Shown one piece after another: positions 18,694 to 35,433 of a stretch of 64,000 nt of DNA. A model generated the notes under the pieces. It was given only the letters and a program-made list of their open reading frames with translations, was not told the origin of the DNA and made no database searches. Origin of the DNA: an uncultured Nitrospiraceae bacterium. Lineage in GTDB: Bacteria > Nitrospirota > Thermodesulfovibrionia > Thermodesulfovibrionales > UBA9159. Within the stretch, counting starts at the first letter, position 1. Each line of letters begins with the position of its first letter. The stretch is taken from the NCBI GenBank assembly GCA_964475485.1, contig CAYYWY010000007.1, forward strand, positions 15,849 through 79,848. The letters are read 5' to 3'. The translations under genes were made by a program, and so were the position numbers.

Positions 18694-18766
18694 GGACTCG
18701 GCTGCAAAGAAGCGCGTTATCGGTTACAATAGACCCGGAACAGCACCGGCTGGAGAAAGGATTTCC

Positions 18767-20205: not shown

Positions 20206-20796
20206 ATGTCAGAGAAGGAAAAGCCTTTGCCGAGACCTCCGAAAACCCCCTTCGGAAGAAGGCGCTTTGACCAGGGGGAAGGAAATGCTCCCCTTATGGC
20301 CGAGAGGATGGCAGTTGCGATGGCACAGGGGAAACTGGATGATTTTATGAAGGAAGAGATGCCTGACAACGACTATGCAAGGACTCTTGCTGCGATGATG
20401 ATGGGAATGACGGGAATGATGGTCCCCGGGGGCATGCCTTCAGGTGGCGAGAAAAGAGAAGAGGAGCATTCAGGGAAGGGAGAAGTGGTGAGGCCCTCCG
20501 AGGAAGTGCGTTCCGGGCAATCCTCTGAGGGGGTGATCAGTGCCGCACTGGCAGGGGACGTAAAGGGGTTGATGGAGATACTTGCCACTGAACACAAGAA
20601 GAGGATGCCGGAGCCGGGATCCGATCCTGCTGGAGAGAAAGAGATGCAGGAATCACCGGGACTCAGTGGCCTCGAAAGGAAGACCCTTGACCGGATCGTA
20701 GGAATCGCCTCTGAGAACAATGTGAGCGTCGACTGGATTGTGATGAGGGCATTGAAACTGTATATACAGGAGTATCAGAAAACCGGCCGGCTGTAG
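20206..20796 (+). CDS. Hypothetical protein with a Met/Gly-rich disordered region and a C-terminal ribbon-helix-helix-like segment
   Basis: 'AAMMMGMTGMMVPGGMP', and C-terminus 'LDRIVGIASENNVSVDWIVMRALKLYIQEY'. Confidence 0.5.
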   Translation: MSEKEKPLPRPPKTPFGRRRFDQGEGNAPLMAERMAVAMAQGKLDDFMKEEMPDNDYARTLAAMMMGMTGMMVPGGMPSGGEKREEEHSGKGEVVRPSEEVRSGQSSEGVISAALAGDVKGLMEILATEHKKRMPEPGSDPAGEKEMQESPGLSGLERKTLDRIVGIASENNVSVDWIVMRALKLYIQEYQKTGRL

Positions 20797-20810: not shown

Positions 20811-21164
20811 TCACGATGATTGGATCGATCCACTGCTTCTGCTTAACTTTCCGCTATCGATGAATGTGATGCTCACGTCTTTCGGAAGGGCGAACCCGGC
20901 CTCCACCTCCATAGCCTTCAAGATGCCCGACGGCACGGGACAGGTGACATGCTTCAGATGTTTCGAGGCTGAACGGTAGACAGGGTTGTCGAGGAACCGG
21001 ACGAATACCGTCATCATATCCAGATACTCAACGTCCCCGGCCATCTTGCTCACCATCTCACAATCAGACGCAAGCGAGATGCGTATCTTCTTTCCGGCGG
21101 TTTTCTCAGCTGCTATTGTAGTCGTGAAACCGCAGATACCCGACTTTACAACGACCTTGGTCAT
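20811..21164 (-). CDS. Small Cys-containing hypothetical protein (117 aa), last gene of the minus-strand row
   Basis: 'VVVKSGICGFTTTI', 'SDCEMV', 'HVTCPVPSGILKAMEVEAG'. I cannot assign a family with confidence. Confidence 0.5.
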   Translation of the reverse strand: MTKVVVKSGICGFTTTIAAEKTAGKKIRISLASDCEMVSKMAGDVEYLDMMTVFVRFLDNPVYRSASKHLKHVTCPVPSGILKAMEVEAGFALPKDVSITFIDSGKLSRSSGSIQSS

Positions 21165-21210
21165 TCTTATATCCCTTTTATTATATCATGGAATGTCCGG
21201 GCAAAATCCG

Positions 21211-22020
21211 TCACACTTCCGGGATGTTACGGACATGGGCGAACATCCCGTTTATGGTTCTCGTCTTTTCCCTCTCTTTGGCAAGGAACAGGAGGATATC
21301 CTTCCTTATGGCATTGAGTTCGGCGCTCGTCCTGTCCCTGGGCCGGGGGATATCCACCTTGAGCATCTTTCCGATCTCGGCAGGCCTCGATGTCAGACAG
21401 ATGATCTCATCTCCAAGAAAAACAGCCTCTTCCACATTGTGTGTGACGAAAAGCACGGTCTTTCCTGTCTTTTCCCATACGTGCAGGAGGGCCACCTGCA
21501 TGTAGTTCCTTGTCTGGCAGTCAAGGGAGACGAACGGTTCATCCATGAGCAGCACCTTTGGTTCCACTACGAGGGCCATCGCAAGGGCAACCTTCTGTTT
21601 CATCCCCCCCGAGATCTCCTTGGGGTAAAAGTCCTTGAAATCCTGAAGCTCCACGAGCTCCAGGGCGTTTAGAGCCTTCTCCCTCCTCTGCTCTTTGGGA
21701 AGTCCCGCAATCTCAAGCCCGAACTCCACATTCCGTATCACTGTTCTCCAGGGCAGGAGGGCTGGCTCCTGAAAGATATACCCGATCTCCCTCGCCGGTG
21801 CGGTAATCTCCTTATCCCCGAGAAATACCCTTCCCCTGTCAGGCCTTTCGAGACCCGAGATCATCCTCAGAAGGGTTGTCTTTCCACAGCCGCTGGGGCC
21901 TATGATGCAGACAAATCTACCCTCGGATACTGTGAAAGAGATGTTACTTATGGCGTCTATCCTTCCCTCCTCCGTTGTGCTCACGAAGGACTTGTGAAGA
22001 GCGGTCACCCTCAGCTCCAT
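21211..22020 (-). CDS. ABC ATP-binding protein, NitT/TauT (nitrate/sulfonate/taurine) type
   Basis: 'GPSGCGKTTLLRMISGLERPDRG', 'ISGGMKQKVALAMAL', 'LLMDEPF'. Confidence 0.85.
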   Translation of the reverse strand: MELRVTALHKSFVSTTEEGRIDAISNISFTVSEGRFVCIIGPSGCGKTTLLRMISGLERPDRGRVFLGDKEITAPAREIGYIFQEPALLPWRTVIRNVEFGLEIAGLPKEQRREKALNALELVELQDFKDFYPKEISGGMKQKVALAMALVVEPKVLLMDEPFVSLDCQTRNYMQVALLHVWEKTGKTVLFVTHNVEEAVFLGDEIICLTSRPAEIGKMLKVDIPRPRDRTSAELNAIRKDILLFLAKEREKTRTINGMFAHVRNIPEV

Positions 22021-22021
22021 C

Positions 22022-22789
22022 TCATCTCCATCTAAGGAGCCTGCGTTCTGCGCTCCTTATGAGAAAATCCATGATGTATCCTATCGCTCCGATCACAGCC
22101 ATCCCGGCAATAATCTGGTCCGGCCGCTGAATGTCCCTTGCAGTCATGATCATGTATCCGAGGCCGTAGCCGCTCTTCACCCCGGTGAATTCCGCCGCCA
22201 CAAGGGTCATCCACCCGATGCCCATGGCTATCCTTATCCCTGTAATGATGGAGGGCATCGCCCCCGGGGCAAGTACCTTGATGAGGAAAGCCGCTTTCTT
22301 TGCGCCTAATATTCTCGATGACTCAATAAGTCTTCTGTTGATGGACATCACCCCTCCGGTCGTGTTCAGGAGGATAGGGAAAAAGGCGCCGAGGAATATG
22401 ATGAAGGATGAGGACTTGTCGCCTATGCCAAACCAGAGAATTGCTATGGGTACCCATGCAAGGGGAGGTATGGGCCGTATCATCTCCACAAAGGGAGTGA
22501 GGAGATCCCTTACCTTCCCCCAGTATCCCATGAATATTCCCAGGGGCAGGGCCGCGACTATGGCTATGGCCACGCCGCCCAATACCCTCTTCAAACTCCC
22601 GATACAGTGACCGATAAGGTGATACCCGGGAGGCAGACCATCTGTTACGAGTTCCGTGAAACCATGGAGTATCGTGACTGGAGAAGGAAGCCTGTTGCCG
22701 GGGATGACACCATAGAAGGACAGAGTTTCCCAGAGGATGATAAGGCCAAAGACCGGAAGATAGCGGAGCGCTTTATATGCCCCTGGCAT
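22022..22789 (-). CDS. ABC permease, NitT/TauT type
   Basis: Six-TM BPD-type permease with 'EMIRPIPPLAWVPIAILWFG'. Confidence 0.85.
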   Translation of the reverse strand: MPGAYKALRYLPVFGLIILWETLSFYGVIPGNRLPSPVTILHGFTELVTDGLPPGYHLIGHCIGSLKRVLGGVAIAIVAALPLGIFMGYWGKVRDLLTPFVEMIRPIPPLAWVPIAILWFGIGDKSSSFIIFLGAFFPILLNTTGGVMSINRRLIESSRILGAKKAAFLIKVLAPGAMPSIITGIRIAMGIGWMTLVAAEFTGVKSGYGLGYMIMTARDIQRPDQIIAGMAVIGAIGYIMDFLIRSAERRLLRWR

Positions 22790-22830
22790 GCTCTTGCTCT
22801 CCCTGTCTGAAGTGAAGGAGAATCATCCGC

Positions 22831-23793
22831 CTATCTTGTTGCGTCCCTGATCATCTTCGTGTCAAGAAATTCGAGGGCGAAGGCGTCTATATCAAGTGGC
22901 TTCACATATCCGAGCTTGAGGAGATAGGTTACATACTCCTTTATGTCCTCCTCTCTCGGAGAATGATTGTAGTCGATGTGCCTTATCGCCTCCCTGACCG
23001 TGGCTTCGTCCATTCCCGTATATTTCGTGCCGACCTTCAGGGCCTCCTCCCGGTTCTTCTTTATGAATTCAGTCGCCTTCACGTGGGCCTTCACAAAGGC
23101 CTTCACGACCTGAGGATTTTCCCTGTAGAAGCCCTCCTCCACCGCAACGATACAGCAGGGATGGCCTTTCCATATCATGGGAGACGAGGTGAGGACCCTG
23201 CCCTTGCCTCTGGTCACCGCCTTTGAGGGATGGGGCTCCCATGCGATAAATGCATCTATCTGTCTTGATTCCAGGGCCACGAGCATCTCAGGGGGCTTGA
23301 TCACGATGATGTTCACCTTCCTGGGGTCGACCCCTGCTCCCTCCAGGGCCTTCCTCAAAAGAAAATCCTGCACGCTGGAATAACCGGGGATTGCAACTGT
23401 CTTCCCTATCAGGTCCTTCACATTCCTTATTGCCGAGTCCTTCCCCACCACTATTGAAGAGCCCTCCGCATTTGCGAGGGCGACCGCCTTCACGGAAGCG
23501 GACCTGTTCGCTACCCCCGTTGCACTCGGCGCAACTCCGATGTAGCCTATGTCGAGGCTCTTTGAGGCAAAGGCAGACATCTCCTCGGGGCCGGCATTGA
23601 ATATCCCTGCTACTTCCACTTCGATCCCCTCGTCCTTAAAGAAACCCCTTTCCATCGCCACCCATGCAGCGAGGTGATGGAGGTCATTCCTCAGGTAACC
23701 GAGCCTGACCTTCTTGGGTGGAGCAGCAAAGACCAGCGTACAGAGCACGATCAGTATTACTGAGACCGCCGTCAAGATCCATTTCGATTTCAT
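22831..23793 (-). CDS. ABC substrate-binding protein, NMT1/SsuA-like
   Basis: Signal peptide, then 'KVRLGYLRNDLHHLAAWVAMERGFFKDEGIEVEV'. Confidence 0.8.
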   Translation of the reverse strand: MKSKWILTAVSVILIVLCTLVFAAPPKKVRLGYLRNDLHHLAAWVAMERGFFKDEGIEVEVAGIFNAGPEEMSAFASKSLDIGYIGVAPSATGVANRSASVKAVALANAEGSSIVVGKDSAIRNVKDLIGKTVAIPGYSSVQDFLLRKALEGAGVDPRKVNIIVIKPPEMLVALESRQIDAFIAWEPHPSKAVTRGKGRVLTSSPMIWKGHPCCIVAVEEGFYRENPQVVKAFVKAHVKATEFIKKNREEALKVGTKYTGMDEATVREAIRHIDYNHSPREEDIKEYVTYLLKLGYVKPLDIDAFALEFLDTKMIRDATR

Positions 23794-23804
23794 CTCTTCT
23801 CCCT

Positions 23805-25778
23805 TTATGCTTTTATTTCCACTATGCTCTCTGACTTTTCGAGCATCGCCTTCAGATTCGGAAATTTATCTTTCATGTGGGGGATATGCATTGCCTGCAT
23901 GAACTCCTTTTCGAATGACGGGTCAGTGGCTATCTCAAGGAACTCGACCCATCTTGCCCTTTCATTGGCCTCAACCCTTTTCCCCTTGTTAAGAAGGGCC
24001 ATCCTTGCGCCGTCTCCCGCCGCATTGCCCACGGCGTACACCTTTTCAATGGGACAGTCGGGGAACATGCCGAGGGTGAGGGAGGCTTCCCTGTCGATGT
24101 GGCTGCCGAAGGCCCCTGCGAGCACAACCCTGTCGAGCTTTGCGATCCCGAGCCTCTTCATCATCAGTTTCGCCCCTGTGTACAGGGCTCCCTTCGCGAG
24201 TTGAAGGGCTCTCACGTCCGCCTGTGTGATCGTGATATCGGTTCCGATCGACGTCTCTTCAGCCCAGGCAAGGACATACTCAGGTTTGCCTTCCGCATCC
24301 TTCCGTACTCTCGGTGTGCCGAGGTCCATCACGAATCTTCCCGACTTGTCTATAATCCCGGCCTTGAACATCTCGGCAACAATCTCTATTATCCCTGACC
24401 CGCAGATGCCCTTCGCATTCACCTTCTCGAGATAGGTATGCCAGTCTGCCTTTCCGATGACCTTGTAAAGGGGCTCCTTTGTGACAGGGTCGATCTTGAC
24501 CTTCTCGATGGCGCCGGGCGCCGCTCTCATGCCGAACTTGATCTGGGCGCCTTCAAAGGCAGGCCCCGTGGCGCACGAGGTCGAGCAGACCTTCTCCCTG
24601 TTGCCGAGGAGAAGTTCGCCGTTTGTCCCGATGTCGATGATGAGTACCATCTCGTCCTGATTGTAGGGTTCCTCCGCAATTAAGACCCCCACGTTGTCCG
24701 CACCAACGAAGCCTGCCTCTATGGGCAGGACATGGATATATGCAGCGGGATTGATCTTCAGGCCGATATCCCTTGCCTTGATGTTTAGTGAACTCTGCAC
24801 TGCAGGTATAAAGGGGGAGCGTCCGATATATTCAGGGTTGAACCCGAGCAGTATATGGTGCATGGCGGTATTGAAGACGATGGTGAGGTCATCTATTGCA
24901 AAGCCGGGGTTCGAACCGTCCTTTCTGATCTCTGTCACCACTTTTTCGATAATCTCGTTCAAGCCATCGATGATGGCCTTCTGCATTATTTTAAGACCAT
25001 CAGGGTTGCTCATGGCATAGGTTATGCGGGACATCACGTCTTCTCCGTAGGGCACCTGAGGGTTCATCATCGATTCGGTATTCACGACCCTGCCTGTGTT
25101 CAGGTCGGAGAGATATCCGACGCAGGTTGTGGTTCCCACGTCCACTGCAAGGCCGTAGCAAGTCTCTACAAAGCCCGGCTCGACCTTAATGATCTCCCTG
25201 TCCATCCATACCGTTACGGTCGCCTTCCAGTTGCCCTTTCTCAGAACGTCCTGAAGATCCCTAAGCACCATGTAATCGAACGTAAGGTTCTTGAGGCCAT
25301 AATCCTCTTCGAGGAATCTGAGCACCCTCTCATAATCACCGGTCGTCATGTCATGAAGTGTTGGGGGAACAAGGTCGACGTTGTACTTCTTGACAGCCGG
25401 ATCCAAGGCTATGGAAAGTTCCTTTGCCGCCTTCCGTACGACCTGCTTGCCCGCCCTTGAACGTTCTGGGACGAAGACCTTTACATCGCCGTACACCTCG
25501 GCAGTGCAGGCAAGACGGATCCCGGGGCCGTCCTCGGGTTTGATATGTTTCTTTTCAGCCTCGGTGATGGGGGAGAGATGGGCCATGCCTGACTCCATCC
25601 CGTCTTTTTCAAAGTACCCCTCCTCAATCCTTACCTTGCATTTTCCGCAGACCTTCTTGTTTCCGCAGAGGGCCTCAATGTCTACCCCGAGGGACTGGGC
25701 GGCTTCAAGGAGCGTCTTTCCCTCCTCAATCTCCCCCCTTCGTCCCGAAGGCTGGAATATGACTCTATGTTTTGCCAT
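23805..25778 (-). CDS. Second corrinoid activation protein (RACE/RamA-like; 2Fe-2S + ASKHA)
   Basis: 'VIFQPSGRRGEIEEG..CGNKKVCGKCKVRI', 'LAVDVGTTTCVGYL', 'IDIGTNGELLLG'. Colinear with the paralogue at 9460. Confidence 0.9.
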   Translation of the reverse strand: MAKHRVIFQPSGRRGEIEEGKTLLEAAQSLGVDIEALCGNKKVCGKCKVRIEEGYFEKDGMESGMAHLSPITEAEKKHIKPEDGPGIRLACTAEVYGDVKVFVPERSRAGKQVVRKAAKELSIALDPAVKKYNVDLVPPTLHDMTTGDYERVLRFLEEDYGLKNLTFDYMVLRDLQDVLRKGNWKATVTVWMDREIIKVEPGFVETCYGLAVDVGTTTCVGYLSDLNTGRVVNTESMMNPQVPYGEDVMSRITYAMSNPDGLKIMQKAIIDGLNEIIEKVVTEIRKDGSNPGFAIDDLTIVFNTAMHHILLGFNPEYIGRSPFIPAVQSSLNIKARDIGLKINPAAYIHVLPIEAGFVGADNVGVLIAEEPYNQDEMVLIIDIGTNGELLLGNREKVCSTSCATGPAFEGAQIKFGMRAAPGAIEKVKIDPVTKEPLYKVIGKADWHTYLEKVNAKGICGSGIIEIVAEMFKAGIIDKSGRFVMDLGTPRVRKDAEGKPEYVLAWAEETSIGTDITITQADVRALQLAKGALYTGAKLMMKRLGIAKLDRVVLAGAFGSHIDREASLTLGMFPDCPIEKVYAVGNAAGDGARMALLNKGKRVEANERARWVEFLEIATDPSFEKEFMQAMHIPHMKDKFPNLKAMLEKSESIVEIKA

Positions 25779-25875
25779 ATGATTCCTCCGAAAATAATTT
25801 TATGGATTCGTCTTTAAACCAAAGGTCATCATTAAAGGTTACGCGACAGGCAATGTGACTGAGCGCGAGCCCGGC

Positions 25876-26541
25876 CTACCCTGCCTTGCAGGAAACAGCC
25901 GAACCTTTCCGGGGCACCTTCCTTCCGTAAGGACATATGTTCACGCACAATCCACAGTTTGGCTTGCCGTTGAGGCTCCTCGCATTCCCCTTATGAGAAC
26001 GGCACTTGTCCAACCGTATTAGTTCGACAAAAGGTTCGTATCGGGACCATTGCCCTCCCGTGATCGCATTGGATGGACAGAAATCAGCGCAGAGATTACA
26101 TTCCCCACACATGCTGAACTCAACAGGTGCATCCGCCGGGACAGGGGCGTCCGTAAGAACCGTTGCAAGTGAGAGTCTGGGACCGAAGTCAGGGCTGATC
26201 AGGAGGCCATTTCTGCCGACCCAGCCCAGTCCCGCAGAGGTAGCGGCCATCTTATGGTTGAAAAGCGGGTAAAGCCTTGATACGAACGTGCCCCTCACCC
26301 TGTCCGAGTCCGGGGGGATGCAGAGGTACCTGTATCCCTTCCTCTTAAGATACTGGGCAGCCTTTTTCTGCAGCCTGACGAGCAGGAGGATTGTATCCTC
26401 GTTCAACTTCCTGGCGACCCCTATGGAAATTGCGGTCTCAAGGTGTGCAATCTCTTCCCCGAGCACTCCCCGCAAGTGTGCATAGCCCACGACCGTGGCG
26501 CCTGCCTTCAGAAGTTCACTCTTTAGGGTCCTGGCTATCAC
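25876..26541 (-). CDS. Short QueG/RdhA-like 4Fe-4S protein
   Basis: 'HKMAATSAGLGWVGRNGLLISPDFGPRLSLATVLTDAPV' and two Cys clusters 'CGECNLCADFCP', 'CGLCVNICPYG'. I prefer the GTG at 26541, which overlaps the upstream stop (GTGA), over the ORF-track start at 26649. Confidence 0.7.
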   Translation of the reverse strand: MIARTLKSELLKAGATVVGYAHLRGVLGEEIAHLETAISIGVARKLNEDTILLLVRLQKKAAQYLKRKGYRYLCIPPDSDRVRGTFVSRLYPLFNHKMAATSAGLGWVGRNGLLISPDFGPRLSLATVLTDAPVPADAPVEFSMCGECNLCADFCPSNAITGGQWSRYEPFVELIRLDKCRSHKGNARSLNGKPNCGLCVNICPYGRKVPRKGSAVSCKAG

Positions 26542-27227
26542 GCTCTCTTTGCCTCGGCCTCTTCCTTGAGTTTCTTGAGTGAGCTGATCATATTGATGGC
26601 ATCCTTCAAAGCGTTGTTCGCATCCTTTGCATACCCGTCTGCTCCCCACTTCTCTGCGATGTCCTGTGAAACAGGCGCGCCGCCGATCATGATCTTTACG
26701 TTTGGATTCTTCGCATGGAGGTTGTCGATGACCTTCTTCATGCCCGTCATCGTAGTGGTCATCATGGCAGAGAGGCAGACGAGGTCCGAATCGGTCCTCA
26801 GCTGTTCTTCCACAAACTTGTCAAGAGGGACGTCGCGGCCGAGGTCGTACACCGTGAAACCTGCGACATCGAACATCATCTTCACGATATTCTTGCCGAT
26901 GTCGTGGACATCGCCTTCCACTGTACCGATGACCACCGAGCCTTTTACCCCAAGGTCGAGCTGCTTGACGTGCGGTTTCAGTATGTCCAGTCCGGCATAG
27001 AGGGCGTCGGCGCACATGAGGAGCTCGGGCACAAAGTACTCCTGTGCCTCAAAGAGCCTACCTACCTCCTCCATGCCGCTCACCAGACCGTTAAAGATCG
27101 CTTCATTTGCATCCATGCCCACATCCAGCGCCTCCTGCGCAGTCTCTTTCGCCGCATCCTCGTCATACTGTATCACGGCGTTTCTCAGTCTCTCTAAAAG
27201 CTCTTTCTTTTTTTCTTCTGTTACCAT
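26538..27227 (-). CDS. Second corrinoid (B12-binding) protein
   Basis: ATG at 27227 preceded by 'caggaggtagaa'. DxHxxG motif 'GDVHDIGKN', plus 'LSAMMTTTM' and 'IMIGGAP'. Confidence 0.9.
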   Translation of the reverse strand: MVTEEKKKELLERLRNAVIQYDEDAAKETAQEALDVGMDANEAIFNGLVSGMEEVGRLFEAQEYFVPELLMCADALYAGLDILKPHVKQLDLGVKGSVVIGTVEGDVHDIGKNIVKMMFDVAGFTVYDLGRDVPLDKFVEEQLRTDSDLVCLSAMMTTTMTGMKKVIDNLHAKNPNVKIMIGGAPVSQDIAEKWGADGYAKDANNALKDAINMISSLKKLKEEAEAKRA

Positions 27228-27229
27228 TT

Positions 27230-28267
27230 CTACCTCCTGTAATTTCTTACTTCGTCCATCATTGCCAGAATGTTTTCGGCCGGGACGGTGGGCCATATGT
27301 CGCAGCCGGGCCAGACCGCGCTCACCCCATCGTCCATGCATTTCTTCATGGTTTGTCTCACCAGCTTGGTGGTCCCTGCCACAAGGATATTGTAAGGATC
27401 GTAGTTGCCGAAGATCAGGGCGTCCCTGCCCAGCTTCTTTCGGGACTCAGCCACGTCGTTTTTCTGGTCGACGCTTATCGCCTTTGCACCGGTCTCCATC
27501 ATAAAGGGGACGATGTCGTTGGTCTTGCCGCATATATGAAGAACGCTCGGGACGGTGAGCCTGTCGAATATCTTCTTCAGATAAGGCTGTATGAGGTTCT
27601 TGAAGACTCTGGGGCTAAGGACGTCCGACGTCGCACCCATCTCCCTCACCGTGAGGTAATCTACCCCTGCCTTCTCATACCGGCCGGCCACTGCTATAAT
27701 GGCATCGGCGAGCAGGTCGAGGAGGCTCCCGACCTTGTCCGGCTTCTTGAATGAGAGTTTCAGCAGGTCGTTCAGTTCCATGATCTGTCCTGCAAGAGTG
27801 AACGGACCGAGGACATAGGAGCCCACAGGGACCTCCTCGCCTATCTGATTCTTTAACAGTCCGATGGCCTCGCATACAAGGGATATCCTGCCCTTTTCCT
27901 GAAAGTCGGCGGATACCGAGATTCCCATCTCCTCCTCACTGGTGATGAGTTTCTTTTTGATGGTGGGATAGAGAAGGTCTTCGGAATGGGCATACACGTT
28001 TATCTCACAGCCCAGCGCCTCTGCCTCGACGCAGAGGTCAAATGGTACCACACCGCACTCAAATCCGAAAAGTCTGTAGGTCGACGCCGCCGCGTCGGCC
28101 ATCATCTTTGCATCGAGATGAGAAGCCGCGAACTTATATCCGAGGGACTTCAACCCCTCTGCAGTGACATTTCCCATCCCGCTGAAACAGGGCGGACGGT
28201 CAACCTCTTCCCCTGCAAAGAGTCTGGCTATCCTTTCTTTAGGTGTTACGGTTGTGATCGACATCAT
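27230..28267 (-). CDS. URO-D family corrinoid methyltransferase, paralogue 3 (closest to paralogue 1)
   Basis: 'TPKERIARLFAGEEVDRPPCFSGMGNV', 'VPFDLCVEAEALGC', 'LHICGKT' ... 'VWPGCDIWP'. Confidence 0.85.
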   Translation of the reverse strand: MMSITTVTPKERIARLFAGEEVDRPPCFSGMGNVTAEGLKSLGYKFAASHLDAKMMADAAASTYRLFGFECGVVPFDLCVEAEALGCEINVYAHSEDLLYPTIKKKLITSEEEMGISVSADFQEKGRISLVCEAIGLLKNQIGEEVPVGSYVLGPFTLAGQIMELNDLLKLSFKKPDKVGSLLDLLADAIIAVAGRYEKAGVDYLTVREMGATSDVLSPRVFKNLIQPYLKKIFDRLTVPSVLHICGKTNDIVPFMMETGAKAISVDQKNDVAESRKKLGRDALIFGNYDPYNILVAGTTKLVRQTMKKCMDDGVSAVWPGCDIWPTVPAENILAMMDEVRNYRR

Positions 28268-28300
28268 TCCTCCTTAAGATAATAAAGTTATGCGCGATAA

Positions 28301-29248
28301 TTACTTGCGTGCTCCTCCAAGTGTCAGTTTTTCTATGAAATCGGAGAAGAATTTCCTTATAGGCAGACCCCTGTTCTCGGGCATATGCTTTGTTTCATCA
28401 TACACAAGGGTGGTAAGCAGGATGTGCGCTGTTGCTACCGCAGGGAATATCCTCGGTGCGGTTACAATGGGTCCATAGAAATTGAAATCGCTCCACAAAA
28501 CCGAAGACATGCCCTGGGCTACTGCATCCATAGCCCTGAAACCGTCCAGACCCCAGACCGTCTTCGCATCTTTCCACATGTGCGTGCCGTTGGAATAGGC
28601 GCCGCCGCATGGAAGGCCCAGTTTCTCCTTTATGAGTCTGTTTGCGAGGAGGGAAAAGGACGTGGCAGGTAGGTTCATCACGGAAGTATCCACGATGACA
28701 GTGTCAAAGCTGTCCGCCCCCTGAGCAAGAATGCTTTCCAGGGACTTGAGACGGCCTGCCGGTGATTGGTCCGTGTCGTCGAATGCCTGTATCACCACAT
28801 GCCTTATGCCGAGGTCTTTGAGTTTGTTCACCTGCCCCATTATGTCCTTGTCCCAAGGGGTGATGCTGTTATACAGGAACTTGTCCTGCACACCGAGTTT
28901 CGATACGTACTCTGTTGCCTTTGCCCTTTTTTCGGCGACCCACATATCTATGCCGAAAGGCATAGAGGTCGTCTCGAGATAGAAGTCTATGTAAACCTGA
29001 GCTTCTTCAGGGGTATTTGCCACCATCGCCACCATTCCGGGGATTCCGGTGGAGGCTGAGAGCTCTTCCTGTTTCCTGATAAGTTCCTTTGCCTTCTGCC
29101 TGTCGAAGTTTCCCTTCCTGTCCACAAGGATCTTGTCCTTATTGTGAAACATTGAAGCAATGAGCAGAGGCGGGTATTCTCCCGGCTGACCGCCTATCCT
29201 TATTCCCGACAAATCGAAAACCTTCTGTTCAGTTGTGAAATTAAACAT
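28301..29248 (-). CDS. MtrH-like pterin (tetrahydrofolate/tetrahydromethanopterin) : corrinoid methyltransferase
   Basis: N-terminus 'MFNFTTEQKVFDLSGIRIGGQPGEYPPLLIASMFH' matches the MtrH family signature. The ATG at 29248 is chosen; the upstream extension in the ORF track has no homology pattern. Confidence 0.8.
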   Translation of the reverse strand: MFNFTTEQKVFDLSGIRIGGQPGEYPPLLIASMFHNKDKILVDRKGNFDRQKAKELIRKQEELSASTGIPGMVAMVANTPEEAQVYIDFYLETTSMPFGIDMWVAEKRAKATEYVSKLGVQDKFLYNSITPWDKDIMGQVNKLKDLGIRHVVIQAFDDTDQSPAGRLKSLESILAQGADSFDTVIVDTSVMNLPATSFSLLANRLIKEKLGLPCGGAYSNGTHMWKDAKTVWGLDGFRAMDAVAQGMSSVLWSDFNFYGPIVTAPRIFPAVATAHILLTTLVYDETKHMPENRGLPIRKFFSDFIEKLTLGGARK

Positions 29249-29337
29249 TTCTTCTCCTCGTTCTTGAATCAAGACACAACCCTTCCCTGAAATGCAGGAA
29301 ATTGCGGGGGAGGCAGCGCCTCCCCCGTGCACAGCGA

Positions 29338-29784
29338 TTAGTACACACCATGGTCGAACTTAGGCTGCGGCAGATACTCCCAGCTCTCTCCCTTTCTGTA
29401 CTTTGCCTCGATATCAAGACATTTCAGTGCGTATTCGAAGGCGTAAGGTATTCCAGGTCCGCCGGGCACAAAGCCTGCCAGGATCATGCCAACGGCCGCT
29501 GCCTCGAATATCTCACCGGTGGTCGCTCCTGCGTCGATGGCAGGGATTACATGGATAATGCAGCGAGGCGAGCAGTAACCCACTCCTCCCGCCATGAACA
29601 TGAGTTCCTTCACTTTCTTGGACAGAGCTCCGTCTCCGAAGATCGTGGCATAGAAGTCAGCAAATGTCTTTCCCGGATCAGGGGTGACCGTGTTGATGAT
29701 CTGGAACATCCTCGGGACAAATCCCATCTTGTTCTTCATGTAATCATTCACTTCCTGAGCCGACATCTTTTTCTCTTCTGCCAT
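29338..29784 (-). CDS. Carboxymuconolactone decarboxylase / AhpD-like family protein
   Basis: ATG at 29784 preceded by 'aaaggagg'. 'LSKKVKELMFMAGGVGYCSPRCIIHVIPAIDAGATTGEIFEAAAV' resembles the CMD core, but with C-x3-C spacing. Confidence 0.55.
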   Translation of the reverse strand: MAEEKKMSAQEVNDYMKNKMGFVPRMFQIINTVTPDPGKTFADFYATIFGDGALSKKVKELMFMAGGVGYCSPRCIIHVIPAIDAGATTGEIFEAAAVGMILAGFVPGGPGIPYAFEYALKCLDIEAKYRKGESWEYLPQPKFDHGVY

Positions 29785-29904
29785 TGTTGCCTCCTTTTGG
29801 TGGCCGGAAGGCGCCTTCCGGACGAACAGTTTTCTCACCTCATCAAAAATCCCCATGGTCTACCTCCGTTACATCGGGTTGCTCTCTTTCACCTCCTTCA
29901 GTCC

Positions 29905-30942
29905 TCAGAGTTTCCACTGAAACGCCACATCGTGGAATCTCTTAAGGTTTTCGTATGGTATGGTTGGCGGTATGTCGCATCCCGGCACGAGAACGAATCC
30001 CCCGTCCTTGCCAGCGATTTCTATCACCTCTCTGCACGCCTGTTCGACCTCATCTGCCGTTTTGTTGAGCAGTACGTGAACAGGGGCGATATTCCCTCCG
30101 AAGCACATCTTGCCGAAGAGGACTTCCTTTGCCTTCCTGATATCAACCTTCTGGTCAAAGAATATGGTGCTTGCGCCTGTCACCGGGAAAAGCTCGAGGC
30201 GGTCGCTGGTATCTCCGCAAATGTGCAGGATGGTATGAACCTTCCTTGCCCTTGCCCAGTCAGTCATTTTTTTCAGCGGAGGCACGGCAAAACGTTCCAT
30301 CTGCTTTCTGTTTATCAGGTCTCCGGATGCGGTCGGGTCCGCGATACTGATGCACTCAAGCCCGTCCGAGACAAGAGGCTCGTAAAGATGGATGAGAAGG
30401 TCCGCGCAAAAGTCCGCCATCTTTTCGACGAAGGCGGGCTTTTTGAATATGGCCTTCATAAACGGCTCTTCACCCACCATACGAGCTGCAAGGGTAAAGG
30501 GACCCCAGCAGGTCATAGTTACGAGGTGCCTGTTGCCGATTTTTTCCTTCACCCTCCTTGTGGCTTCCATCACGGTCTGAACGACCGGCTCCTTGTGCAC
30601 ATCCCCGATATCGAGCTTTGCGATATCCTCCTCGGAATTGATAAAGTGGGTGGTTAGGTCGGGAGCTCCTATTTCGCGGTACTTGATCCCAGCGCCGAAA
30701 GCCTTGCCGAGGGCGAAAGCATGGAAGTTGTTATAGCCGGAACCGACGTATACCACATCGCTCCTTATCCTCTCTGCCTCCGCGACGCACATGTCGGTCA
30801 TCTTGCCGGGGTCGAGAGAGAGTTCTTCGAAGCTTGTGCCGTAATCCTTGATAGACCACATACCCCCTCCGAAAAGGGTAACCGGAACCCTTTCTGGTTT
30901 TCCCATCTCAAAAGCCCTCAGTACGATTTCCCTCGGCGTCAT
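29905..30942 (-). CDS. URO-D family corrinoid methyltransferase, paralogue 4
   Basis: 'TPREIVLRAFEMGKPERVPV', 'LHICGDTSDRL' ... 'LVPGCDIPP'. Confidence 0.85.
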   Translation of the reverse strand: MTPREIVLRAFEMGKPERVPVTLFGGGMWSIKDYGTSFEELSLDPGKMTDMCVAEAERIRSDVVYVGSGYNNFHAFALGKAFGAGIKYREIGAPDLTTHFINSEEDIAKLDIGDVHKEPVVQTVMEATRRVKEKIGNRHLVTMTCWGPFTLAARMVGEEPFMKAIFKKPAFVEKMADFCADLLIHLYEPLVSDGLECISIADPTASGDLINRKQMERFAVPPLKKMTDWARARKVHTILHICGDTSDRLELFPVTGASTIFFDQKVDIRKAKEVLFGKMCFGGNIAPVHVLLNKTADEVEQACREVIEIAGKDGGFVLVPGCDIPPTIPYENLKRFHDVAFQWKL

Positions 30943-30962
30943 ACAAGATCCTCCTTTTATAG

Positions 30963-31316
30963 CTAAAATGGATGGAATAATGCTCCAAAACCGCGAACAT
31001 CCCTGATAGTCCTCCTGAACTCCTCAAGGTCAAGGGGCGACCTCATGCTCACCACATCACTATCGGGTCTATCAGGCCCTACGAAAATGACCACAATGTC
31101 AGGGGACTCGCTCCGAATGATCTGCGCCGCTTCATCGGCGGAAAGTCCAAAGGAGTCCGAATCGATTATGACGGCACGAAACTTTCTCCGGAAGACCATC
31201 TGGACAGCAAGGGCGGAATGATCCACAGTCTCAACACTGAAACCCTCATCTCTAAGTATCCCGTAGAGGTTTTTGATCAGGATGGGATTATGTGTACATA
31301 AAAGGACTTCATTCAC
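30963..31316 (-). CDS. Stand-alone CheY-like receiver domain with a degenerate acidic pocket
   Basis: GTG start. 'AVIIDSD' could hold the phospho-Asp, but the N-terminal DD/DE pair is replaced by 'CTHN'. 117 aa. Confidence 0.5.
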   Translation of the reverse strand: MNEVLLCTHNPILIKNLYGILRDEGFSVETVDHSALAVQMVFRRKFRAVIIDSDSFGLSADEAAQIIRSESPDIVVIFVGPDRPDSDVVSMRSPLDLEEFRRTIRDVRGFGALFHPF

Positions 31317-31328
31317 GATATATATACA

Positions 31329-31346
31329 GGCAACTTTGGTGCCAAC
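31329..31346 (-). promoter_or_regulatory. Sigma-54 (-24/-12) promoter
   Basis: The minus strand reads GTTGGCACCAAAGTTGCC, i.e. TGGCAC-N5-TTGC with exact GG-N10-GC spacing. It lies directly upstream of the receiver/methyltransferase genes. Confidence 0.6.
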
Positions 31347-31416
31347 AAGAAACGATTGAAAAAGAAAGAGAATTCGTCATGTCCAATTAATAGGGATGAA
31401 ATATGCCCCACAGTCA

Positions 31417-31435
31417 TGGGGAAAAATTCCCCATA
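31417..31435 (-). terminator. Hairpin just after the metF stop (weak terminator or processing site)
   Basis: Perfect 8-bp stem ATGGGGAA/TTCCCCAT with a 3-nt loop. There is no clear U-tract on the minus strand. Confidence 0.3.
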
Positions 31436-31437
31436 TC

Positions 31438-32328
31438 TTATGTTGAGGAAGGTGAGGATGAGGGAAGGATGCTCAATGCACTGATGATTTCGCTGACAGA
31501 ATCCGACCTGTTCATGGTGTAGAAGTGGAGATACCTGACACCGTTTTTCAAGAGGTCTTCACACTGTTTGATAGCGTACTCCGTTCCGATCTTTCTCATC
31601 TCCTCTGGTTTATCGAGAACGGATGCCATCCTGTCCATCACCGCCTTTGGGATCGTCGCGTTGCAGAAGTTCGCAAACTCCTCTATCTTTCTGCAGTCAA
31701 AAATGGGCATGATGCCGGGCAGAACAGGAATTACGATACCCAGTTTCATTGCCCTGTCCATGAAGTCATAGAAGTACCGGTTATCGAAAAACATCTGGGT
31801 AACACCGAAGTCGGCCCCCGCATCGATTTTCTGTTTTGTATATTCCATGTCCTTTTCAATGCTGGGGGATTCCGGATGACCTTCGGGGTAGACCGCAACG
31901 GCTATCGAGAAGTAATTGTATTTCCCGGTGAACTCCACGAGATCCCTTGCATATTTGAATTCACCCCTTGACGAATCGAAGTCAGGCACGTTCCTCGGCG
32001 GGTCTCCCCTGAGGGCGAGGATGTTGTCTATGCCAGCGGCCATATAATCCCTGAGAAGAGCGTCTATGGATTCCCTGGTCGCGCCGATGCAGGTCAGATG
32101 TGACATCACCGTGAGGTCGGTCTCCTCCCTTATCCATTTGAGGGTGTTGGAAGTCCTTTCCCGCGTACTGCCTCCCGCCCCGTAGGTGACGGAGACATAC
32201 AGTGGGTCGTAATGTCGGAGGTCATTCACGACCTTCATGAAACTCCACCTTGCTTCCGGGGATTTTGGGGGAAAGAACTCGAACGACACGCCCCTTTTCC
32301 TCACCCTCAAGACTTCTCTGATCTTCAA
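31438..32328 (-). CDS. metF: Methylenetetrahydrofolate reductase
   Basis: 'VSFEFFPPK', 'YVSVTYGAGGSTRERT', 'MSHLTCIG'. 296 aa. Confidence 0.9.
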   Translation of the reverse strand: MKIREVLRVRKRGVSFEFFPPKSPEARWSFMKVVNDLRHYDPLYVSVTYGAGGSTRERTSNTLKWIREETDLTVMSHLTCIGATRESIDALLRDYMAAGIDNILALRGDPPRNVPDFDSSRGEFKYARDLVEFTGKYNYFSIAVAVYPEGHPESPSIEKDMEYTKQKIDAGADFGVTQMFFDNRYFYDFMDRAMKLGIVIPVLPGIMPIFDCRKIEEFANFCNATIPKAVMDRMASVLDKPEEMRKIGTEYAIKQCEDLLKNGVRYLHFYTMNRSDSVSEIISALSILPSSSPSST

Positions 32329-32331
32329 GGC

Positions 32332-32862
32332 TCACTCCCCTTCAGATTTTCTATTTATCATGACGGCACCGGAGACGGATGTCGGTTTCACGAGACTGTC
32401 CACCACAGGGCAGCGGGCGATCACCTTTTCCGCGAGTTCCCTTATCTTTTCTTCATCATCAGGCGTCTCAATAGTAAGAATATATTTTATACCCTTAAGG
32501 CCGGCTGGTATGTCGTCGATCATGAAAAGGCCCCTCAAATCGAGAGTCCCTTCGACCTCCACAGAGAGCGAATGTATCGTATAGCCCTGATGCACGGCAA
32601 ACTCGTAGAACGCTGCCTCAATGCAGGCTGCCATGGCAGAGAGCAGAAGCTCTATGGGGTTCGGCCCAAGGTTTGTGCCTCCTGCTGCCTCGCCGTAGTC
32701 GGACCGGACAAGATGCTCCCTCACCTTTGTCTCCGTACAGAGCCCTTCCACGTGGCGTGACGAGACTCTCGGCTTGTAGATGGCAGCTTCGGGCTTTCTC
32801 CTGAAAAACTCCAGCCTCCTCGACACGATCTCCTCCAGATCTTTCCCGCGTCCCTCTCTCAT
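32332..32862 (-). CDS. OsmC/Ohr-family protein
   Basis: 'GPNPIELLLSAMAACIEAAF' and 'IARCPVVDSL' (two-Cys OsmC pattern). ATG at 32862 preceded by 'gaaggagaagg'. The 341-aa version in the ORF track is rejected. Confidence 0.75.
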   Translation of the reverse strand: MREGRGKDLEEIVSRRLEFFRRKPEAAIYKPRVSSRHVEGLCTETKVREHLVRSDYGEAAGGTNLGPNPIELLLSAMAACIEAAFYEFAVHQGYTIHSLSVEVEGTLDLRGLFMIDDIPAGLKGIKYILTIETPDDEEKIRELAEKVIARCPVVDSLVKPTSVSGAVMINRKSEGE

Positions 32863-33001: not shown

Positions 33002-33913
33002 TTGAAGACAACTATTGTTTGCGGACTGCTCGGAGCAGGGAAGACGACCTTTATCCGGCACGTTGCGAAAGGTTCGGCGGAAAAGACGGTCATCCTTGTC
33101 AATGACTTCGGAAAGGCCGGTATCGACGGCGAGATATTCTCCTCGGGCGGTCTCGAATCGATTGAATTGCCCAGCGGGTGCGTCTGCTGCACCCTCAAGT
33201 TTGATCTTATCACCACGATACAGGGAATAATGGAGACGCTGTCTCCCGAACATCTCCTCATCGAACCGAGCGGCGTGGCCTCGCCCTCCGGAGTCCTGGA
33301 CGCCCTAAATACCCTCAAGATCGCTCCGGTGACGGTGGTAGGGATAGTGGATGCCACTGAATTCGTAGAGCTCCACGAGACCGGGATGTACGGCTATTTT
33401 TTCGAAGACCAAATTGTGAACTCCGACATTATCCTAGTGAACAAGACCGACCTTGCTGGCAGAGAGAGGACAGACGGGACGGTTACTCTTGTGGAGAGCA
33501 TTAACCCTCGGGCAATAGTACTCAGGACAGTGAACGCAGCACTTCGGGACCCGATTCCTCTTGTATTGCACGCAAAGCGGACCATAGGCAGAAATCTCCC
33601 GCACTTTCGGTTCGATACACTGTCGCTGAGGCTCAAAGCCGCGAGGAAAAAGACTCTCTACGAGAAGTTCTTTGATGACATGGCAAAGGGTATCTACGGA
33701 AACGTGGTGAGGGCAAAAGCTCTTGTCCAGACGGACGAGGGTCCCTTCAGGTTCGACCTTTCTTACGGCTCCGTTGACAAGAGCCCTTTCCCGCGGGAAA
33801 TCACAGAGAGCAGGCTTGTGGTGATCGGTGAGGATTTGGGAGAAGAAAGATTTGACCTTATTGCAGGCGCGGCTGATGGCCTTTCCCGTGATCACCCAGA
33901 TTCACTAATATAA
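33002..33913 (+). CDS. Full-length CobW-type G3E GTPase (GTPase plus C-terminal domain)
   Basis: TTG start. 'GLLGAGKTTFI', 'GCVCCT', 'ILVNKTD'. C-terminal domain 'VVRAKALVQTDEGPFRFDLSYG..LVVIGEDL'. Confidence 0.8.
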   Translation: MKTTIVCGLLGAGKTTFIRHVAKGSAEKTVILVNDFGKAGIDGEIFSSGGLESIELPSGCVCCTLKFDLITTIQGIMETLSPEHLLIEPSGVASPSGVLDALNTLKIAPVTVVGIVDATEFVELHETGMYGYFFEDQIVNSDIILVNKTDLAGRERTDGTVTLVESINPRAIVLRTVNAALRDPIPLVLHAKRTIGRNLPHFRFDTLSLRLKAARKKTLYEKFFDDMAKGIYGNVVRAKALVQTDEGPFRFDLSYGSVDKSPFPREITESRLVVIGEDLGEERFDLIAGAADGLSRDHPDSLI

Positions 33914-33933: not shown

Positions 33934-35433
33934 ATGGATGAAGCATGCGCGGCACCTGAGATGTTGGAGAGGCAAAACAAGAGGCTCTCCATCCTCTATC
34001 AAATCGCTCTCACTGTAAGCAAGTCCCTCGACCTTAAGAGCATTCTCAACGATGTCCTTGAAATCATCATAGACTTTATGGGGGTGGATTCCGGAGTCAT
34101 TTATGTGATAAATGACGAAACCCTGGAGATGATACCCGTTACCTTCAGGAACCTAACCGATGAAGTGGTAAGAGACCTCTGTGAGAACAGGGTGAAGGTT
34201 GGTGAATGCATGTGCGGCACCATCGCCCAGTGCGACAAAGAGGTAATCATCCTTGAAAAGGCATCGGACGATCCAAGGTTTACCCGGGGAGTTCTCAAGA
34301 AGGAGGGGATGGAGTTTTACGCAGGGCTGCCTCTCAAGGCAAAGGGCAAGGTGGTGGGGGTGCTCTGTGTCATCACTCATGCTGCATATTCGCTGGATGA
34401 CGAACTCCTGGATGTGTTGCGGGCTGCAACAGTTCCGATCGGCCTTGCTATAGAGAACGCCAGACTTTTCGAAGATACAAAGAAAGAAGCAGAGTCCCGG
34501 ATGAGGTATTACAACTTCGAAGGTATCATCGCTAACAGTCCGAAGATGGGGGAGGTATTAAGGTTAGTGAGGAAAGTGACAAATGTCCCTTCGAGCATCC
34601 TCATCTATGGTGAGAGCGGTACAGGGAAGGAGCTGATTGCCAGGGCCATTCATTTCAACAGTGTCAGGAAGGGCAAGCCTTTCATCGCTGTGAACTGCAC
34701 TGCGATTCCCGAGACCCTTCTGGAGTCGGAGCTCTTCGGATATGTTAAGGGTGCCTTCACCGGAGCTTCTGCCGACAAGATGGGGCTCTTCGAGGCTGCG
34801 AACGGAGGCACGATCTTCCTTGACGAAGTGGAGGCTATGTCCAGGAATCTACAAGTGAAGCTTCTGAGGGTTCTGCAGGACAGCACATTCTTTAAAGTGG
34901 GCAGCCCACGACCTCTTACGGTGGACATAAGGATAATCGCGGCAACAAACCAGGACCTTGAAGAAAAGGTAAGGGCTAAACACTTCAGGGAGGATCTTTA
35001 TTACAGACTGAAGGTGATAAAGATAGAGCTGCCCCCTTTAAGGGAGAGGAGGGAGGACATTCCCTTGCTTATAAGGTACTTCATCAACAAGTTCAACAGG
35101 AAAATGGGAAAGAATGTCAGGAGAGTCTCGGATGACGCGTTCGGAATCCTTATCAACTATTCATGGCCTGGCAATATCAGGGAACTGGAGCATACGGTCG
35201 AAAGGGCCATCGTCATTGCGGAGACCGATGAACTGATGCGGGAAGATCTTGCGCTCGAAATAACTCCGCACACTGACGAGAGGAGCGATTGGAGAATGGA
35301 ATCCATAGAGAGGGAACATATACTCAGGGTTTTGGGCCTCACCGGATGGAACAAGAAAAAGGCCTCGGGCCTGCTTGGGATGGATGCAGCCACCCTTTGG
35401 AGAAAACTGAAGAAATACGGCATACCACTCTGA
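33934..35433 (+). CDS. Sigma-54-dependent transcriptional activator with an N-terminal GAF domain
   Basis: GAF-like N-terminus, AAA+ 'YGESGTGKE', sigma-54 contact loop 'GAFTGA', and C-terminal Fis-type HTH 'KKASGLLGMDAATLWRKLKKYGI'. Confidence 0.9.
   Translation: MDEACAAPEMLERQNKRLSILYQIALTVSKSLDLKSILNDVLEIIIDFMGVDSGVIYVINDETLEMIPVTFRNLTDEVVRDLCENRVKVGECMCGTIAQCDKEVIILEKASDDPRFTRGVLKKEGMEFYAGLPLKAKGKVVGVLCVITHAAYSLDDELLDVLRAATVPIGLAIENARLFEDTKKEAESRMRYYNFEGIIANSPKMGEVLRLVRKVTNVPSSILIYGESGTGKELIARAIHFNSVRKGKPFIAVNCTAIPETLLESELFGYVKGAFTGASADKMGLFEAANGGTIFLDEVEAMSRNLQVKLLRVLQDSTFFKVGSPRPLTVDIRIIAATNQDLEEKVRAKHFREDLYYRLKVIKIELPPLRERREDIPLLIRYFINKFNRKMGKNVRRVSDDAFGILINYSWPGNIRELEHTVERAIVIAETDELMREDLALEITPHTDERSDWRMESIEREHILRVLGLTGWNKKKASGLLGMDAATLWRKLKKYGIPL

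Follow-up and report, generated by a model that had tools for sequence, protein, structure and literature searches.

We analyzed a 64,000-nucleotide stretch of a contig from an uncultured Nitrospiraceae bacterium (GenBank assembly GCA_964475485.1, contig CAYYWY010000007.1, forward-strand positions 15,849 to 79,848; hereafter the window, numbered from its first letter) and within it a row of fourteen minus-strand genes running from 32862 down to 20811. Judged by gene content and order, the row is one variant of a corrinoid methyl-transfer operon conserved in the Thermodesulfovibrionia (Nitrospirota). We consider it about an even call that this is a methyl-transfer operon whose importer supplies a cofactor-like sulfonate. 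A broader proposal is more tentative, possible rather than probable: that Thermodesulfovibrionia make or import coenzyme M (CoM), or a very close sulfonate thiol, run a soluble corrinoid-dependent methyl transfer between methyltetrahydrofolate (methyl-THF) and CoM, and recycle the thiol with an HdrDE-like enzyme. The importer would act as an alternative supply line for a sulfonate that relatives synthesize and not as the entry of a growth substrate.

Conservation of the Operon in Thermodesulfovibrionia

The open reading frames (ORFs) of the window were listed and translated and then scanned against Pfam and NCBIfam, with start codons refined by ribosome-binding sites and homolog lengths. All fourteen genes were recovered in the order claimed in a preliminary description of the same letters, and its family assignments hold apart from small corrections to two proteins, which it had called a receiver and QueG-like. 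The core consists of a URO-D methyltransferase, a corrinoid protein, a pterin methyltransferase of the MtrH/MtgA/MtoA type and a RACo activase, so that all four component types of the anaerobic corrinoid methyltransferase architecture recognized earlier are present. Beyond these, the core has another zinc methyltransferase, of the MtaA family, together with an AhpD-like protein and a 2x[4Fe-4S] protein.

A one-genome-per-species scan with the RACo protein found 253 relatives, the best 80 of them at 79–91% identity, and the synteny of related loci was studied by tblastn (labels such as L001 denote individual loci). Counts for the core refer to loci whose sequence reaches 7.5 kb or more upstream of RACo, and counts out of 56 to loci with 6.5 kb or more downstream. 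Nearly all of the best 80 carry the label Nitrospirota, and three have other phylum labels. The gene order recurs in 80 species-level genomes, far beyond chance. The block of receiver-like protein, URO-D A, CMD, MtrH, URO-D B, corrinoid protein, Fe-S protein and RACo was complete in 54 of 54 loci, and the receiver-like protein itself was conserved in 44 of 54 loci; a small protein of family DUF6951 followed the core in 67 of the 70 loci with enough downstream sequence. The genes at the 5′ end of the row were less constant, with OsmC found upstream in 16 and MetF in only 10 of 49 loci. Database searches gave more than 120 homologs of URO-D A, 77–98% identical, and those with a named source are all from Thermodesulfovibrionales/Nitrospirota metagenome-assembled genomes (MAGs).

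We found no description of the cluster in the literature, nor of CoM, comDE or cysteate synthase in Nitrospirota. In a paper on Thermodesulfovibrionia MAGs, MtaA is mentioned only as a route that methyl compounds might take (PMC9326234).

Sulfonate Biosynthesis Genes and Their Alternation with the Importer

In 48 of 56 related loci, the same strand continues past the core with genes for a DsrM/NarI-like membrane protein, an HdrD/TfrB-like CCG iron-sulfur protein, a pyridoxal phosphate enzyme and a thiamine pyrophosphate enzyme. The first two form an HdrDE-like pair of an HdrD-like CCG protein and a cytochrome b-like membrane partner. The pyridoxal phosphate enzyme is cysteate synthase (TIGR03844, 433–468 bits against a cutoff of 325 in L001, L002 and L084), and the thiamine pyrophosphate enzyme is probably a fused sulfopyruvate decarboxylase, ComDE, whose alpha domain passes TIGR03845 (158–185 against 148) and whose beta domain falls just short of its own model; a model for phosphonopyruvate decarboxylase fits it less well (188 against 312.5). 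The operon of the relatives ends after ComDE. In class II/III methanogens, cysteate synthase and ComDE catalyze the first committed steps of the phosphoserine route to CoM, as far as its precursor sulfoacetaldehyde (PMC9457059; PMC11844431). No match to cysteate synthase, ComDE or the HdrD-like protein was found within the 64-kb window. The ThiS/ThiF/TusA genes that follow ComDE in L084 were considered as a thiolation route and rejected, as they occur in one or two loci only.

What the window has instead is an importer of the ATP-binding cassette (ABC) type. The periplasmic binding protein (22831..23793; 320 amino acids) begins 11 nt after RACo and is followed by the permease (22022..22789; 255 amino acids, Pfam BPD_transp_1) and the ATPase (21211..22020; 269 amino acids, Pfam ABC_tran). 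With 146 bits on NMT1_2 and 204.6 against a cutoff of 163.5 on the SsuA family model TIGR01728, the binding protein is assigned by sequence to the SsuA (aliphatic sulfonate) family of NitT/TauT importers, in agreement with the importer type named in the preliminary description. It did not reach the TauA taurine equivalog (97 against 304), and TauA 6SSY is its closest match among PDB structures. The importer is an accessory module of the core. It is present in 7 of the 56 loci with enough downstream sequence, and in every locus bearing it (the window, L004, L007, L052, L054, L060, L076, L078, L081, L084, L089 and L091) the permease and the ATPase accompany the binding protein. In some loci, the window among them, it is placed between RACo and DUF6951, and elsewhere it comes just after DUF6951.

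The importer and the biosynthesis genes tend to replace each other. Cysteate synthase and ComDE are missing in cis from 6 of the 10 importer loci with sufficient sequence, the window included, versus 4 of the 49 loci without an importer (Fisher p = 7e-4, a statistic that ignores phylogeny). A neighbor-joining tree of RACo places the importer in three separate clades, each of which has members with and without the biosynthesis genes, and L091 has kept the importer and the HdrDE-like pair while the biosynthesis genes are absent. An ssu-type ABC transporter of Methanosarcina acetivorans has been described as specific for CoM, and in this archaeon ssuBC, cs, comDE and hdr are induced together under CoM starvation (PMC11844431).

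The sulfonate has the look of a cofactor or cosubstrate because the relatives synthesize it, and cells do not synthesize their own growth substrate. This bears on three claims made earlier for the row. The ligand had been expected to be charged or small and polar: the kind of compound stands, the binding protein being of the SsuA family and its likely ligand a sulfonate, and the role probably does not, as the compound looks like a cofactor or cosubstrate and not a growth substrate. Import of a methylated substrate is disfavored by the usual partners of the core, which are cysteate synthase, ComDE and the HdrDE-like pair, and by the inverse association of the importer with the biosynthesis genes. 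Nor is there support for the row, as proposed, being a single complete route of uptake, demethylation and transfer to methyl-THF: only 7 of 56 loci have the importer and 10 of 49 have MetF, a gene that stands upstream of the conserved promoter.

More distant homologs of the binding protein, 50–55% identical, were seen in other lineages (L085, L086, L087, L088, L090 and L092) in two recurring contexts. One contains a LarA-like nickel-pincer hydroxyacid isomerase, a glutathione-reductase-like flavoprotein and AhpD-like and URO-D-like proteins; the other has a flavin mononucleotide (FMN) reductase and a radical-SAM/GNAT protein, sometimes after a multihaem cytochrome, NarI-like and CCG proteins.

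Proteins of the Methyl-Transfer Core

Both URO-D proteins have MtaA (4AY7) as their best PDB match. URO-D methyltransferase B (27230..28267; 345 amino acids) passes the family cutoff for MtaA/CmuA (TIGR01463, 253 against 235.4) and that for PRK06252 (285 against 244), with E = 3e-47 for 4AY7. URO-D methyltransferase A (29905..30942; 345 amino acids, Pfam URO-D 197 bits) does not reach the family cutoff (TIGR01463, 186 against 235). The zinc ligands are invariant in both, H244, C246 and C322 over 69 orthologs of URO-D B and H240, C242 and C322 over 61 orthologs of URO-D A, and in the alignment their counterparts in M. mazei MtaA are H237, C239 and C316. Archaeal members of the MtaA/CmuA family methylate CoM. 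On this sequence evidence, URO-D B is a candidate methylcorrinoid:thiol methyltransferase. URO-D A appears to be a divergent MtaA relative and is a candidate for either the substrate-side methyltransferase (MT1) or a second thiol methyltransferase.

Across the related loci, URO-D A occurs in two types, 75–89% (type I) and 59–65% (type II) identical to the window protein, while the other core proteins stay at about 75–90% identity. OsmC lies upstream in 14 of 20 type I but 2 of 29 type II clusters, and the importer is found only with type I (7 of 23 versus 0 of 37). The two types may represent two substrate specificities.

The MtrH-family protein (28301..29248; 315 amino acids, Pfam MtrH 184 bits) passes NF002142 (335 against 287) and matches in the PDB both MtrH itself (8Z9U) and the methylcorrinoid:THF methyltransferase of Desulfitobacterium hafniense (6SJ8, E = 1e-41), although it stays below the MtgA equivalog (166 against 550). 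By sequence it groups with the soluble methylcorrinoid:pterin methyltransferases MtgA and MtoA. MtoA, which is MtrH-like, demethylates its own corrinoid protein with tetrahydrofolate and not with CoM (PMC8630106). With NF002142 passed, the 6SJ8 match and the use of tetrahydrofolate by MtoA, the link of this protein to THF in the preliminary description seems reasonable.

The corrinoid protein (26538..27227; 229 amino acids) combines a helical B12-binding cap (B12-binding_2, 84 bits) with a Rossmann domain (B12-binding, 98 bits) and the motif DVHDIG (DxHxxG); it scores 213.9 against a cutoff of 215.3 on TIGR02370 and 188 bits on the MtgC model. The RACo activase (23805..25778; 657 amino acids) has the Pfam domains Fer2, RACo_linker, Raco_middle and RACo_C_ter, with E values down to 9e-97. 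Between them is encoded the 2x[4Fe-4S] protein (25876..26541; 221 amino acids, Pfam Fer4_16), in which eight cysteines are invariant. The Fe-S part of its earlier QueG-like assignment is right and the rest is not: only residues 95–213 match PDB 4RAS, 4UQU and 5D08, and the region in common is the C-terminal Fe-S part of QueG and RdhA. With scores of 63 on the QueG model (cutoff 200) and 70 on the reductive dehalogenase model (cutoff 160), and only the Fe-S region aligned, the protein matches neither over its full length with the cobalamin-binding core. The protein is probably an electron carrier for corrinoid activation.

Three small proteins complete the conserved block. The receiver-like protein (30963..31316; 117 amino acids) has an invariant D52, and likeness to a receiver is as far as the earlier assignment can be followed, given a Response_reg score of 24.3 bits against a cutoff of 30.2 and the replacement of the N-terminal acidic pair; it is probably a pseudo-receiver. 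The CMD/AhpD-like protein (29338..29856; 172 amino acids, Pfam CMD 25 bits, PDB match AhpD 5DIK) has a conserved C95-x3-C99-x2-H102 motif plus C146. The DUF6951 protein (20811..21164; 117 amino acids, 118 bits) is metalloprotein-like, with C11, C35, H72 and C75 (Cys3His) invariant over 134 family representatives; none of the 535 clusters of the family is informatively named. The sequence features of the AhpD-like, Fe-S and DUF6951 proteins point to thiol/disulfide or electron-transfer roles.

Promoter and Operon Layout

The two genes at the 5′ end of the row encode an OsmC-like protein (32332..32862; 176 amino acids from an ATG at 32862 chosen by the ribosome-binding site and homolog length; Pfam OsmC 69 bits) and MetF, methylenetetrahydrofolate reductase (31438..32328; 296 amino acids; Pfam MTHFR 315 bits, TIGR00676 333 against 294). 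Between metF and the receiver-like gene lies a sigma-54 element of the form TGGCAC-N5-TTGC on the minus strand at 31344–31330 (TGGCACCAAAGTTGC, −24/−12), 13 nt 5′ of the receiver-like ORF. The motif has a single match in the 64 kb, which is not significant alone, but its position about 390–406 nt upstream of URO-D A is kept in 45 of 58 related loci, and the match in the window is meaningful for that reason. The sigma-54 promoter reported earlier is thus real, and it splits the row into at least two units, OsmC–MetF and the receiver-like gene through DUF6951. The short gaps described before were confirmed, with 10 of the 13 junctions at 50 nt or less. No convincing internal terminator was found, the counts from the scan for intrinsic terminators and sigma-70 promoters being at background level.

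Divergent from the row are genes for a CobW/COG0523 GTPase metallochaperone (33002..33913, plus strand; Pfam cobW, CobW_C) and a GAF-domain sigma-54 activator, a bacterial enhancer-binding protein (33934..35433, plus strand; Pfam GAF, Sigma54_activat, HTH_8). The CobW gene is divergent from the cluster in many related loci, and orthologs of the activator, 74–83% identical, have the same position in L004, L007, L070 and L080. The activator is a candidate regulator of the operon.

Some of the related loci deviate from the common layout. In L010 and L003/L033, a RACo copy with or without the core has none of the usual downstream genes; L010 shares one genome with L007. L002 and L003/L033 have identical upstream gene content and identity values and different downstream genes, which suggests a recent rearrangement at the 3′ boundary of RACo. 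Upstream of the cluster in L001 (1507–5865 of that locus) are an ArsM/DUF2284-like S-adenosylmethionine (SAM) methyltransferase and two B12-binding radical SAM enzymes; a second NarI-like/CCG pair comes after these.

Proposed Mechanism and Alternatives

We propose that the GAF-type activator, acting at the sigma-54 promoter, would drive transcription from the receiver-like gene through DUF6951. RACo would keep the single corrinoid protein in the Co(I) state, with electrons probably arriving via the 2x[4Fe-4S] protein, and three methyltransferases would share this one corrinoid protein. The MtrH/MtgA/MtoA-type enzyme would exchange the methyl group with tetrahydrofolate, and the two zinc (H-x-C...C) URO-D enzymes would exchange it with heteroatom substrates. 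In the genome of the window, MetF, encoded with OsmC in the upstream unit, would join methyl-THF to the one-carbon pool. The importer may take up a CoM-like sulfonate thiol, or a precursor, that the relatives synthesize; this thiol may be the methyl acceptor or donor of the MtaA-like URO-D B and would, in the relatives, be kept reduced by the HdrDE-like pair acting as a quinol:disulfide reductase. URO-D A could be where an external methyl donor enters, or else a further thiol enzyme. The methyl transfer from methyltetrahydromethanopterin to CoM yields about −30 kJ/mol, and because of this analogous reaction, we favor the direction from methyl-THF to the thiol, in which case the system would resemble the Mtr reaction of methanogens in a soluble, bacterial form.

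Several observations weigh against this proposal. Its main weakness is that no methyl-CoM reductase is evident at the locus and methyl-CoM is left with no purpose; we know of no methyl-CoM-consuming enzyme here. URO-D B is far under the MtaA equivalog NF040654 (249 against 400), the MtaA pocket residues T28, Q29, R70 and Q94 (named in PMC13618148) are replaced by M, G, V and D/Y in an alignment-dependent comparison, and an invariant Arg208 occupies the position of MtaA A201. Because of the equivalog score and the pocket residues, we call URO-D B MtaA-like in mechanism and not MtaA. On the biosynthetic side, the beta domain of ComDE is slightly under its cutoff (TIGR03846, 204 against 221.5), and coenzyme M synthase (MMP16/ComF, COG1900) is absent among the called genes of the L001–L003, L084, L089 and L091 clusters. 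The alternation of importer and biosynthesis genes, besides being assessed without regard to phylogeny, is broken by L004, L007, L078 and L084, which carry both and would fit substrate import as well, and importer-only genomes could have the biosynthesis genes elsewhere. Finally, the 50–55% identical homologs of the binding protein occur in heterogeneous, unrelated contexts of the sulfonate type, and the subfamily is for that reason not demonstrably CoM-specific.

The same gene row could be read as a route for an imported substrate, the importer bringing in a methylated charged compound, for example one of the methylated sulfonates methyl-CoM or N-methyltaurine, a URO-D enzyme demethylating it, MtrH passing the methyl group to THF and MetF leading it to the one-carbon pool for oxidation or assimilation. 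The tight spacing of the four demethylase components and the importer, with 11 nt between RACo and the binding protein and no convincing terminator, agrees with such a route, as do the adjoining MetF and the four loci with both importer and biosynthesis genes, in which the two could have separate jobs. We nevertheless regard it as unlikely. Most loci have the whole methyltransferase core and no importer, the importer is inversely associated with the sulfonate biosynthesis genes, and MetF, which only 10 of 49 loci have, is upstream of the conserved sigma-54 promoter. Moving a methyl group from a thioether such as methyl-CoM onto a pterin is moreover uphill in thermodynamic terms, and the second zinc methyltransferase, the HdrDE-like pair and the biosynthesis genes would have no role.

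If instead the core served ordinary methylotrophy or O-demethylation of a diffusible donor (a methoxylated aromatic, methanol or methylamine), the sulfonate genes and the importer would be separate, co-regulated neighbors, with possible functions in the handling of sulfur or sulfite, in making osmolytes or in the acquisition of sulfonate sulfur. The core alone does have the layout of MT1, corrinoid protein, MT2 and activase known from Mto, Odm and Mtg, remote homologs of the binding protein adjoin an FMN reductase as in ssu sulfur-scavenging operons, and the MAG paper treats MtaA only as a possible methyl-compound route (PMC9326234). Mere neighborhood is hard to reconcile with the finding that in 48 of 56 species-level loci, spread over the whole clade, DUF6951 is immediately followed by the sulfonate genes in the same orientation, an unusually stable arrangement, or with the position of the importer in the window and several further loci, where it interrupts the conserved core between RACo and DUF6951; a route from donor to THF also needs no MtaA-family thiol methyltransferase. 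We consider this explanation distinctly improbable. Least of all do we expect a methyl-THF-driven methylation of sulfide, methanethiol or a metalloid, biosynthetic or detoxifying, with the AhpD-like, OsmC and DUF6951 proteins handling reactive species. The two methyltransferases of zinc-thiolate type fit this idea, the weak top matches of the AhpD-like protein are AhpD domains of arsenic- or selenium-associated methyltransferase proteins, an ArsM/DUF2284-like methyltransferase lies upstream in L001, and there is a DUF2284 protein in a second corrinoid cluster of the window. However, the supporting matches are all far under their cutoffs, the locus has no arsenic, mercury or selenium resistance genes, and sulfonate biosynthesis and import would be left unexplained, so that we assign this view a very small probability.

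Comparison with Known Systems

The MtoABCD system of Methermicoccus shengliensis and the Odm/Mtv systems of acetogens resemble the present operon in that a substrate methyltransferase is encoded together with a corrinoid protein, the MtrH-like methylcorrinoid:pterin methyltransferase MtoA and an activase of the RACo type (PMC8630106). Only here are these joined by an MtaA-family zinc methyltransferase, AhpD-like, 2x[4Fe-4S] and DUF6951 proteins and a linkage to sulfonate import or biosynthesis and an HdrDE-like pair, and an aromatic ether is not indicated as the substrate. The MtgABC glycine betaine system of D. hafniense has the family of MtgA in common with our cluster (6SJ8 match as above, E = 1e-41), and the MtgC model gives the corrinoid protein 188 bits. 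In contrast, both Mtg-specific models stay under their cutoffs here, and the row has no member of the MttB superfamily, to which the substrate enzyme MtgB belongs.

With the methanogen systems, both MT1 plus corrinoid protein plus MtaA/MtbA and Mtr, the operon shares an MtaA-family zinc enzyme, an MtrH homolog and a corrinoid carrier, which formally are what a methyl-pterin:thiol transfer requires. None of the Mtr membrane subunits MtrA–G is found here, and the bacterial system is soluble; compared with methanogen MtaA, the equivalog cutoff is not reached and the pocket residues differ, and no methyl-CoM reductase is in sight. The CoM supply genes of Methanosarcinales have their likeness in the related loci, with cysteate synthase, a probable fused ComDE and an HdrD-like protein with its membrane partner, and their ssu-type CoM transporter is paralleled by the SsuA-family importer of the window, which has the importer only. 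Unlike in Methanosarcinales, MMP16/ComF was not found among the called genes of the clusters. To our knowledge, CoM has never been reported in the host bacterial group. The bacteria so far known to use CoM are alkene oxidizers with an unrelated Xcb pathway (PMC9457059).

The mec dichloromethane cassette of Dehalobacterium and 'Ca. Dichloromethanomonas' similarly has MtaA/CmuA-family and MtrH-family proteins, a corrinoid protein and RACo (10.1101/2021.08.30.458270). The comparison, made by description only, shows a different gene order and, as components of its own, a PocR histidine kinase, MecC/I and an antiporter; homologs of mec proteins above 35% identity have been reported only in dichloromethane and chloroform degraders (10.1101/2021.08.30.458270). 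The cluster was considered as a mec cassette, and this identity was reduced to that of an analog, since the domain content overlaps while the order and the accessory genes differ.

Other Features of the Window

A second, paralogous corrinoid methyltransferase cluster occupies 806–11412 on the plus strand. It begins with an MtaA-like URO-D protein (806–1858; 51% identical to URO-D B, PRK06252 244 bits), a CobW protein (1855–2472) and a 151-amino-acid protein of no assigned family, and continues with a CbbQ/NorQ-type AAA protein (2921–3751), a 921-amino-acid protein with no family match (3699–6464), the DUF2284 protein (6749–7411), a divergent URO-D protein (7489–8568), a corrinoid protein (8618–9289) and a RACo (9460–11412), the last two being 56% and 59% identical to their counterparts in the main cluster. 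The cluster has no MtrH and looks like a methanogen-style set of MT1, corrinoid protein and MtaA. In L052, a cluster of this second type lies directly upstream of the main cluster.

Between the two methyltransferase clusters of the window are genes for B12 uptake and salvage (12368–20001), preceded by cobalamin riboswitches at 12041–12234 and 15703–15964 (both plus strand; 100 and 50 bits). They encode a BtuF-like binding protein with a FecCD permease and an ATPase, as well as a CobC-like phosphatase, TonB and a TonB-dependent receptor, a CobO adenosyltransferase and a tetrapyrrole methylase. Convergent with DUF6951 is an ORF at 20206–20796 (plus strand) with no Pfam or NCBIfam match, whose homologs, at 31–55% identity, are found at the cluster's 3′ end in some 30 related loci; the protein is rich in Ala and Pro, and its conserved C-terminal segment resembles a ribbon-helix-helix.

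On the other side of the main cluster, a second block of sulfur or sulfonate character extends over 35751–45543 (plus strand) and 37999–39723 (minus strand). It includes a second OsmC (36657–37325) with a TGGCAA-N5-TTGC motif at 36724–36739, a DsrE-like protein (37486–37968), a PAS sigma-54 activator, two permease/ATPase pairs, a weaker SsuA-like binding protein (39925–41124; 97 bits, below the cutoff) and a TauE/SafE sulfite-exporter-like protein (45007–45543).

Significance

Which methylated compounds an anaerobe can use depends on its corrinoid methyltransferase systems. The system described here is conserved across a whole class of widespread, uncultured, sulfate-reducer-like bacteria of the subsurface and sediments, with at least 253 relatives in species genomes, and its stable linkage to methanogen-type genes suggests that a CoM-type cofactor, regarded as a distinguishing mark of the methane and alkane archaea, may also function in Nitrospirota. 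Were this the case, these bacteria would have a counterpart of the central methyl-transfer chemistry of methanogens that lacks methyl-CoM reductase, and the first bacterial CoM-linked one-carbon metabolism outside alkene oxidation. The SsuA-type transporter of the window would be a CoM importer replacing biosynthesis, and the binding protein, the three methyltransferases and the one corrinoid protein would make a concrete, testable system. The mtaA, mtrH and com genes of metagenomes, often taken as signals of methanogens, would then need to be reread.

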